A DNA stretch of 64,000 nucleotides, taken from the NCBI RefSeq assembly GCF_053078305.1, contig NZ_CP166879.1; one strand, 5' to 3'. The position numbers and the translations under genes were made by a program. Positions 42,431 through 42,822 of the stretch are shown here, piece by piece. The notes under the pieces were generated by a model, which saw only the letters and a list, made by a program, of their open reading frames with translations, ran no database searches and was not told the DNA's origin. How positions within the stretch are numbered: position 1 is the first letter of the stretch; each line of letters opens with the position of its first letter.

Positions 42431-42822
42431 AGGGGCTTCATCCGAATTGCGCCATTGTTGCAATGGCGGTTTTTATTGTTTTTCACGACAGTAACCGCAC
42501 CTACACTGTCATGACATTGCTCGCCCCTATGTGTAACAAATAACCACACTGTGAATGTTGTCTTTAATCAATTGTAAGTGCATGTAAAATACCACTTTAG
42601 AGTTAGTCAGTATCTTCCTCTTTTTCAACAGCATGCATAACTGCATGTTCCTCAAAGAATTAATCAACTTTTGTTGCTGACCTTCAAAAATTACCCTGCC
42701 GTTTATTTGCACAATTCTACTTTTGCGTGATCTGTCGCCCAAATACTAAACAAAACTGCCAATACCCCTACATTTAACGCTTATGCCACATATTATTAAC
42801 ATCCTACAAGGAGAACAAAAGC
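42431..42822. promoter_or_regulatory. Divergent nrfA / acs regulatory region
   Basis: 392 bp AT-rich spacer between divergent nrfA and acs; TTGAT-like and TGTGA-like half sites visible but exact FNR/CRP sites not assigned. Confidence 0.5.

Follow-up and report, generated by a model that had tools for sequence, protein, structure and literature searches.

In the inflamed, anaerobic gut, enteric bacteria make use of a periplasmic nitrite reductase encoded by nrfA, a gene whose promoter is a textbook case of combinatorial control of transcription. Hfq-binding structured leaders are known from class I sRNA targets, as in the (AAN)4-containing leader of rpoS and in the "Hfq recruitment" mode of sdhC/Spot 42. 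The nrfA leader shares several features with class I targets: a long 5' UTR, an (ARN)n tract that lies between stem-loops and precedes the ribosome-binding site (RBS), and repression by the Hfq-dependent sRNA RyhB, with an effect on translation only and a predicted site far upstream of the Shine-Dalgarno (SD) element. The likeness to rpoS/sdhC-type leaders is one of arrangement, with both the Hfq and the RyhB sites of nrfA being predicted ones. As in CsrA-regulated leaders of the glgC/pgaA type, CsrA repression is published, and the AUG lies between two GGA motifs spaced 20 nt apart (+81..+83 and +101..+103), the upstream one in the loop of a small stem in most species. Hairpin 2, the stem-loop examined here, is unlike CsrA-binding hairpins in lacking a GGA in its loop, in every species compared, and was rejected as one; it ends 6 nt upstream of the first GGA, that of the GGAUGA element.

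Previous studies of the nrf promoter, pnrf, concern this same locus and its long, conserved leader (Tyson 1994; Browning 2002-2010; Godfrey et al., 2017, PMC5434802), whose role has been called unclear (Godfrey et al., 2017). The searchable pnrf literature covers DNA sites for FNR, NarL/NarP, IHF, and Fis and a CsrA site, and the two leader hairpins are absent from it; the word "hairpin" occurs nowhere in Godfrey et al. (2017). CsrA lowers an nrfA translational fusion 12.6-fold, and still 2-fold with the +102 GGA mutated, and the p+102A mutation relieves the repression; further GGA motifs in the leader and possible differences in mRNA secondary structure were noted in the same study, where repression of the Salmonella nrf promoter was also traced to sequences past +10, and CsrA does not account for all of it (Godfrey et al., 2017). 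Among new RyhB targets, nrfA was listed as one whose translation is repressed (Ribo-seq 1.95, RNA-seq -0.03), and the effect was validated with a -300..+24 lacZ fusion, the pairing site not being mapped (Wang et al., 2015, PMC4666370); nrfABCDEF are also among new anaerobic RyhB candidates (Beauchene et al., 2015). HnrS does not act directly on nrfA. Searches of the nrfA literature on Hfq and sRNAs, CsrA, and RyhB turned up no account of a leader hairpin and no mapped RyhB site, a 2025 review of NrfA has nothing on post-transcriptional control, and a literature search for 3'-end data at the leader locus found none; a 2026 preprint on nitrite-responsive RNA concerns Bacteroides and is irrelevant here. 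Hairpin 2 is a previously undescribed case of a familiar class, the conserved 5'-UTR stem-loop, and not a new kind of element. The finding is of modest use to specialists in nrf regulation and is not surprising.

Position and transcription of the inverted repeat

The window is the whole 64-kb stretch of DNA analyzed; its divergent nrfA-acs intergenic region is 100% identical to E. coli chromosomes. Within it, CGCCATTG-TTG-CAATGGCG (42450-42468) forms an inverted repeat with arms at 42450-42457 and 42461-42468, eight perfect pairs, and a 3-nt loop. The original prediction, made from the sequence of this window, had recognized GCCATTGTTGCAATGGC at 42451-42467 as an inverted repeat with a 3-nt loop, which is present as described; its 7-bp arms, however, can be extended by one pair to 8 bp of complete complementarity. 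It had also placed the repeat about 20 nt upstream of the nrfA start, and the foot of the stem, at 42450, is indeed 19 nt from the A of the ATG (42430). Coordinates of this and neighboring features are collected in Table 1.

Table 1. Features of the nrfA leader and its surroundings, by window coordinate and by position relative to the pnrf transcription start.
Feature	Window position	Position from +1	Strand	Remark
pnrf transcription start	42523	+1	minus	placed from published numbering
5' block GAGCAAUGUC, predicted RyhB pairing site	42513..42522	+2..+11	minus	complementarity to RyhB nt 38-47
Hairpin 1, 11-bp stem	42483..42514	+10..+41	minus	pairing kept across species
A-rich linker AAAACAAUAAAAAC	42469..42482	+42..+55	minus	unpaired probability 0.96 (model)
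Hairpin 2 (the palindrome), CGCCAUUG-CAA-CAAUGGCG	42450..42468	+56..+74	minus	8 bp, about -9.9 kcal/mol
CAAUUC between hairpin 2 and Shine-Dalgarno-like element		+75..+80	minus	
GGAUGA, Shine-Dalgarno-like element and upstream GGA	42438..42443	+81..+86	minus	candidate auxiliary CsrA site
nrfA start codon ATG	42428..42430	+94..+96	minus	RefSeq NP_418494.1
AAGGAUA, published CsrA site		+99..+105	minus	
GGA of CsrA site ACAAGGAUA	42421..42423	+101..+103	minus	p+102A mutation (Godfrey et al., 2017)
acs start	42823		plus	

The transcription start was placed from the literature and not re-measured here, by two independent anchors. The published numbering of pnrf counts from the mapped start (Godfrey et al., 2017), and FNR binds at -41.5; the only FNR-type box, TTGATTAAAGACAA, is on the minus strand at 42571..42558, and +1 is therefore 42523. 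The p+102A mutation changes an Arg codon from AGG to AGA (Godfrey et al., 2017), so that the third base of nrfA codon 3, at 42422, is +102, which again gives 42523. The leader is then 93 nt long, with the ATG at +94 and the palindrome at +56..+74, within the transcript; a start downstream of the palindrome, which had been named, together with mutations of no effect, as what would speak against a leader hairpin, does not agree with this published position. On the sense strand, neither hairpin 1 nor hairpin 2 is followed by a U-tract.

Taken alone, the palindrome is weak evidence. The window contains 32 matches to a perfect 8-bp repeat with a 3-8-nt loop, at 17 distinct places that are mostly terminators, and first-order Markov shuffles predict 6.9 +/- 3.5 per 64 kb, although for any given 93-nt leader the expectation is only ~0.01. 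As a single sequence, the leader has an unexceptional folding energy (z = -1.0). On the E. coli sequence only, the repeat could be due to chance; what raises it above chance is its conservation, together with strand-specific wobble pairs, in 25 species. A scan of 42300-42900 against Rfam (E <= 10) yielded no family at its gathering score. The only match, MicA-like and on the plus strand (20.4 bits, where the gathering score is 41; E = 1.2), was set aside as a generic likeness of hairpin plus U-tail.

Conservation of the stem across species

One genome per species was scanned, yielding 34 nrfA loci, and 25 Enterobacteriaceae sequences were used for structure comparison. The 100 nt upstream of the ATG can be aligned among Escherichia, Citrobacter, Salmonella, Trabulsiella, Intestinirhabdus, Entomohabitans, and an "Enterobacter" isolate. 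In the 25-species alignment, 97.5% of hairpin 2 cells are paired, with both sides changed in three of its eight pairs (E. whittamii, for instance, has U-A in place of C-G), and 96.3% of hairpin 1 cells, also with three pairs changed on both sides. For the two hairpins together the figure is 96.8%; shifting the partners by 1-3 columns lowers it to 27-61%. The observed covariation score and double changes were not reached in any of 500 column shuffles, although the species are related and the shuffles ignore phylogeny. RNAalifold found both hairpins independently and unprompted.

The loop of hairpin 2 is by comparison free, both in sequence (CAA, ACCUC, GCCUU, GCAGAU, AAGAGC, AAGG, UUACCC, and others) and in length, with 3, 4, 5, or 6 nt depending on species. 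The substitutions in the stem are overwhelmingly transitions, of a kind that leave G.U pairs on the sense strand and C.A mismatches on the other. Among 13 distinct stems, sense-strand substitutions yield 16 G.U pairs and 5 mismatches, while the same positions read on the antisense strand yield 2 G.U pairs and 19 mismatches; for hairpin 1 the corresponding numbers are 25 and 10 on the sense strand, and 0 and 35 on the antisense. By hand count, some 13 independent events in hairpin 2 are wobble-compatible and two are not, both of the latter in the loop-closing pair. Predicted stability follows the same pattern: the sense-strand hairpin 2 has a dG of -5.4 to -11.0 kcal/mol in all species, while the antisense version weakens to between -1.6 and -5.2 in ten of them. 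Taken with the variable spacer, this strand asymmetry favors selection on the nrfA mRNA over a DNA operator or a plus-strand terminator.

Hairpin 2 is thus part of the transcript, and selection acts on its pairing in the sense RNA strand; that the palindrome is a conserved sense-strand RNA hairpin is stated with high confidence. The "leader hairpin" of the original prediction is supported by a start site upstream of the palindrome, a stem kept with covariation, and G.U pairs on the sense strand.

More distant and more closely related sequences extend the picture. Serratia leaders can no longer be aligned, and their stem sequences are unrelated, while the order of elements is the same: an AAUGUC block, a hairpin, an A-rich tract, a second hairpin (CUGCU-CUCA-AGCAG), AAAUGGAUG, and the AUG. 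One Enterobacteriaceae metagenome-assembled genome (MAG) has no hairpin 2, which is therefore dispensable in at least one lineage, as judged from that sequence. Within E. coli, the leader is found at 95% identity or above in 5,412 of 5,426 genomes; in three divergent variants that were inspected, changes are confined to the length of the A-run, the stretch between hairpin and ATG (including the SD-ATG spacer), and the outermost pair of the stem.

Possible roles of hairpin 2

The elements on either side of hairpin 2 are conserved as well. Upstream, the A-rich linker and A41 form five consecutive A-R-N triplets in E. coli, which by sequence are an Hfq distal-face or S1-type motif; every species has two to five consecutive triplets, and 24 of the 25 have at least three. 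This tract is likely to be an Hfq platform, as predicted from its sequence. Downstream, the GGA of GGAUGA is invariant, and in most species the SD/GGA is held in a mini-stem of 3 bp with a 5-nt loop, UCU[GGAUG]AGA (42434-42445, minus strand; +79..+90), in which one pair is exchanged between genera (C-G in 13 sequences, U-A in six). Hairpins bound by CsrA typically have this form, and the mini-stem is a candidate for the second such site, proposed by Godfrey et al. (2017).

RyhB pairing was examined with window-restricted scans that included opening energies; unrestricted folding of RyhB-leader duplexes was dropped after shuffled leaders scored equally well. The best site is +2..+11, which would pair perfectly with RyhB nt 38-47 over 10 bp (hybrid -18.0, net -11.1 kcal/mol), with a score of -18.5 kcal/mol against -13.5 +/- 2.3 for dinucleotide shuffles, 10 of 300 of which did as well. 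The RyhB complement is perfect in 16 of the 25 species, has one G.U pair in seven, and has lost a terminal pair in two. GAGCAAUGUC is also the most conserved block in the leader; substitutions in it elsewhere are A-to-G or C-to-U only, so that G.U pairing with RyhB is kept. Lying ~80 nt from the AUG, this block is a candidate for the place where RyhB pairs with the nrfA mRNA, although as it is only moderately better than shuffles it should be taken as a lead only. Pairing of RyhB at the palindrome (+67..+82) was rejected: at -13.0 kcal/mol it equals the shuffle mean, and the hairpin would need to be melted.

Direct control of the SD by hairpin 2 was addressed with partition-function models over +1..+150 of the wild type, 5'-arm, 3'-arm, and compensatory mutants, and a deletion of hairpin 2. 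The modeled unpaired probability of the RBS is 0.66 in the wild type, 0.64 and 0.58 in the 5'- and 3'-arm mutants, and 0.66 in both the compensatory mutant and the deletion; the wild-type values for the SD (0.65) and AUG (0.90) are likewise essentially the same in the hairpin mutants. The RNAalifold consensus contains no conserved helix joining the hairpin 2 arms to the SD or RBS. Masking or unmasking of the SD by hairpin 2, including as an SD-sequestering riboswitch or RNA thermometer, finds no support in this constant modeled accessibility. An effect of hairpin 2 on translation initiation is plausible; because SD and AUG accessibility are essentially constant in the models, it would have to be indirect. 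The linker does respond, its unpaired probability falling in silico from 0.96 to 0.85 when the hairpin 2 arms are mutated, and in the 3'-arm mutant the freed CAUUGC of the 5' arm pairs with GCAAUG at +4..+9, reorganizing the leader. There are three (G)CAAU(G) motifs in the leader, at +4..+9, +67..+71, and +74..+78 (window positions 42515-42520 and 42446-42457). RyhB itself carries two CAUUGC repeats, and the hairpin 2 5' arm plus the first loop base (CAUUGC, +59..+64, 42460-42465) resembles the RyhB seed.

The leader can now be described by a covariation-supported secondary structure in which GGA motifs and an ARN linker accompany the two hairpins, together with a candidate RyhB site. Within it, the stem-loop corresponding to the DNA palindrome may, on balance, be best regarded as an architectural module of a post-transcriptionally regulated leader, rather than as a switch. 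With +56..+74 locked in a compact stem, the A-rich linker and the ribosome-binding region would stay single-stranded; hairpins 1 and 2 would together fold away ~50 nt, and hairpin 2 would shorten the single-stranded path from the RyhB-complementary block and ARN tract to the SD and AUG. The ARN tract would be displayed as an Hfq-type platform, with upstream elements brought beside the SD and CsrA sites, and hairpin 2 could in this way contribute to the translational repression of nrfA published for RyhB and CsrA. Such a module would fit both dual-site binding by CsrA and a RyhB effect confined to translation. The specific assignment of hairpin 2 to an architectural or Hfq-platform role is more tentative, and somewhat less than an even bet. 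Unlikely, though worth stating, is a further proposal in which the leader is a hub acting at a distance: RyhB would pair at the extreme 5' end (+2..+11), the two hairpins would fold out ~50 nt and so make neighbors of the RyhB duplex, an Hfq hexamer on (ARN)5, and the SD and CsrA sites, and translation would be blocked via Hfq recruitment instead of direct SD occlusion. If this were true, the palindrome would be the spacer enabling the geometry, and iron (through RyhB), carbon status (through CsrA), and anaerobic nitrite respiration would be joined on a 93-nt RNA.

Several other explanations for the repeat can be considered. Hairpin 2 could be a passive stabilizer or folding insulator, guarding the leader from endonucleolytic attack or CAAUG mispairing and having nothing to do with RyhB, Hfq, or CsrA. 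The kept stem and free loop are as expected of a purely structural element, the loop has no regulator motif, and the reorganization predicted for the 3'-arm mutant is the kind of misfolding an insulator would prevent; this is nevertheless rather unlikely, as it leaves unexplained the co-conserved ARN linker and the constant place of the hairpin beside the SD. An RNA polymerase pause hairpin, which would pause transcription ~10-12 nt downstream, at the SD, and so synchronize ribosome loading or give Rho or CsrA a window of action, is improbable. The geometry is suitable, with a stable nascent hairpin ending at +74 and the SD 7-12 nt downstream (+81..+86), and premature termination has been raised as a possible CsrA mechanism in Salmonella (Godfrey et al., 2017), but the missing sense-strand U-tract counts against it. 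A functionless chance palindrome, conserved only through the close kinship of the species, would suit the ~7 such palindromes expected per 64 kb, the modest z-score, and the MAG without a hairpin. It is made very improbable by loops that have diverged freely, in length as well as sequence, while the arms remained paired; by the ratio of wobble-compatible to incompatible events, with the two exceptions at the loop-closing pair; and by the presence in Serratia of a hairpin with a different sequence at the same place.

The two remaining possibilities would place the function elsewhere than in the nrfA mRNA. On the plus strand, CGCCAUUGUUGCAAUGGCG followed by GUUUUUAUUGUUUUU could be an intrinsic terminator, stopping antisense transcription from nrfA before the acs promoters. 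It does resemble a Rho-independent terminator in E. coli, with an 8-bp G+C-containing stem and then a T-rich tract; no other site of this kind was called in 42200-43000, and this one (8 pairs, 5 of them G-C, with a T-rich tail) has a plus-strand fold of -11.3 kcal/mol; the weak MicA-like match reflects the same shape. The combination of G+C stem and U-tract was called in E. coli only (8-bp stem plus GTTTTTATTGTTTTT), the Citrobacter tail being GUUCUUUUAUUGUUUUCC. Unlike a Rho-independent terminator, it is not at the end of a plus-strand transcription unit: no plus-strand gene ends there, and only nrfA antisense sequence lies upstream. No sigma-70-like promoter site was called on either strand in 42200-43000, in a scan with little power here, since it missed pnrf itself, which is FNR-dependent with a poor -10. 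Shuffles are expected to have 0.8 +/- 0.9 terminator-like sites per 800-nt stretch, and the stem is not kept on the plus strand, as seen in its mismatches and weakened dG in ten species. Plus-strand termination is therefore improbable as the reason for the repeat, and the likeness to a terminator is most simply explained as a by-product, the T-run arising opposite the conserved A-rich linker of the sense strand; the sense-strand structure thereby explains the look of the wrong strand. At the DNA level, GCCATTG-N3-CAATGGC might be an operator bound by a dimeric factor downstream of pnrf, serving as a roadblock or else giving the divergent acsP1 promoter an upstream site. The original prediction had offered a protein-binding site as its alternative, and the palindrome is perfect in E. 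coli, with fairly conserved half-sites. Half-site spacing, however, varies from 3 to 6 bp among species instead of being fixed, and substitutions preserve RNA pairing on one strand instead of half-site identity; the published FNR, NarL/NarP, IHF, and Fis sites are described at or upstream of the core promoter, and the pnrf97 fragment (-87..+10) holds acsP1 without the palindrome region. An operator is accordingly disfavored, and is scarcely credible. For the preferred architectural module, the structure defines concrete mutants, for example CGCCAUUG to GCGGUAAC in the 5' arm and CAAUGGCG to GUUACCGC in the 3' arm.

Small open reading frames and leader copies

Short or alternative reading frames lie in the leader or just upstream of it. 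A four-codon upstream ORF, AUG-AAG-CCC-CUA-UGA (MKPL; 42427-42441, minus strand), overlaps the nrfA start as AUGA. Coupling through this ORF, or its use as a leader peptide for an attenuator, was rejected: its start is ACG in Trabulsiella, it is frame-shifted in Citrobacter Res13 and FP75, and neither hairpin has the sense-strand U-tract that an attenuator's terminator would include. Since the ORF is not conserved, its AUG is probably there only as part of the GGAUGA Shine-Dalgarno motif. An in-frame TTG at 42463 was likewise rejected as the nrfA start; RefSeq uses the ATG at 42430, and the stretch between TTG and ATG has non-triplet indels among species.

In the K-12 annotation, an 18-amino acid ORF, ytcB (b4821; MHLQLIKDNIHSVVICYT), is at 42527-42583 on the minus strand, or -60..-4 relative to pnrf. 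No E. coli paper on ytcB was found. It spans the FNR box and the -10 element, with its stop 4 nt before the pnrf start, and its translation would need a sense transcript from upstream of pnrf, also carrying the whole leader.

Four of 5,414 matched leader places are on plasmid records. One of these records, NZ_CP161804.1 (23.9 kb, linear, designated "plasmid unnamed", from E. coli Z135-5), carries a copy of the nrfA leader with a frameshifted nrfA, and is probably a chromosomal contig misassigned as a plasmid.
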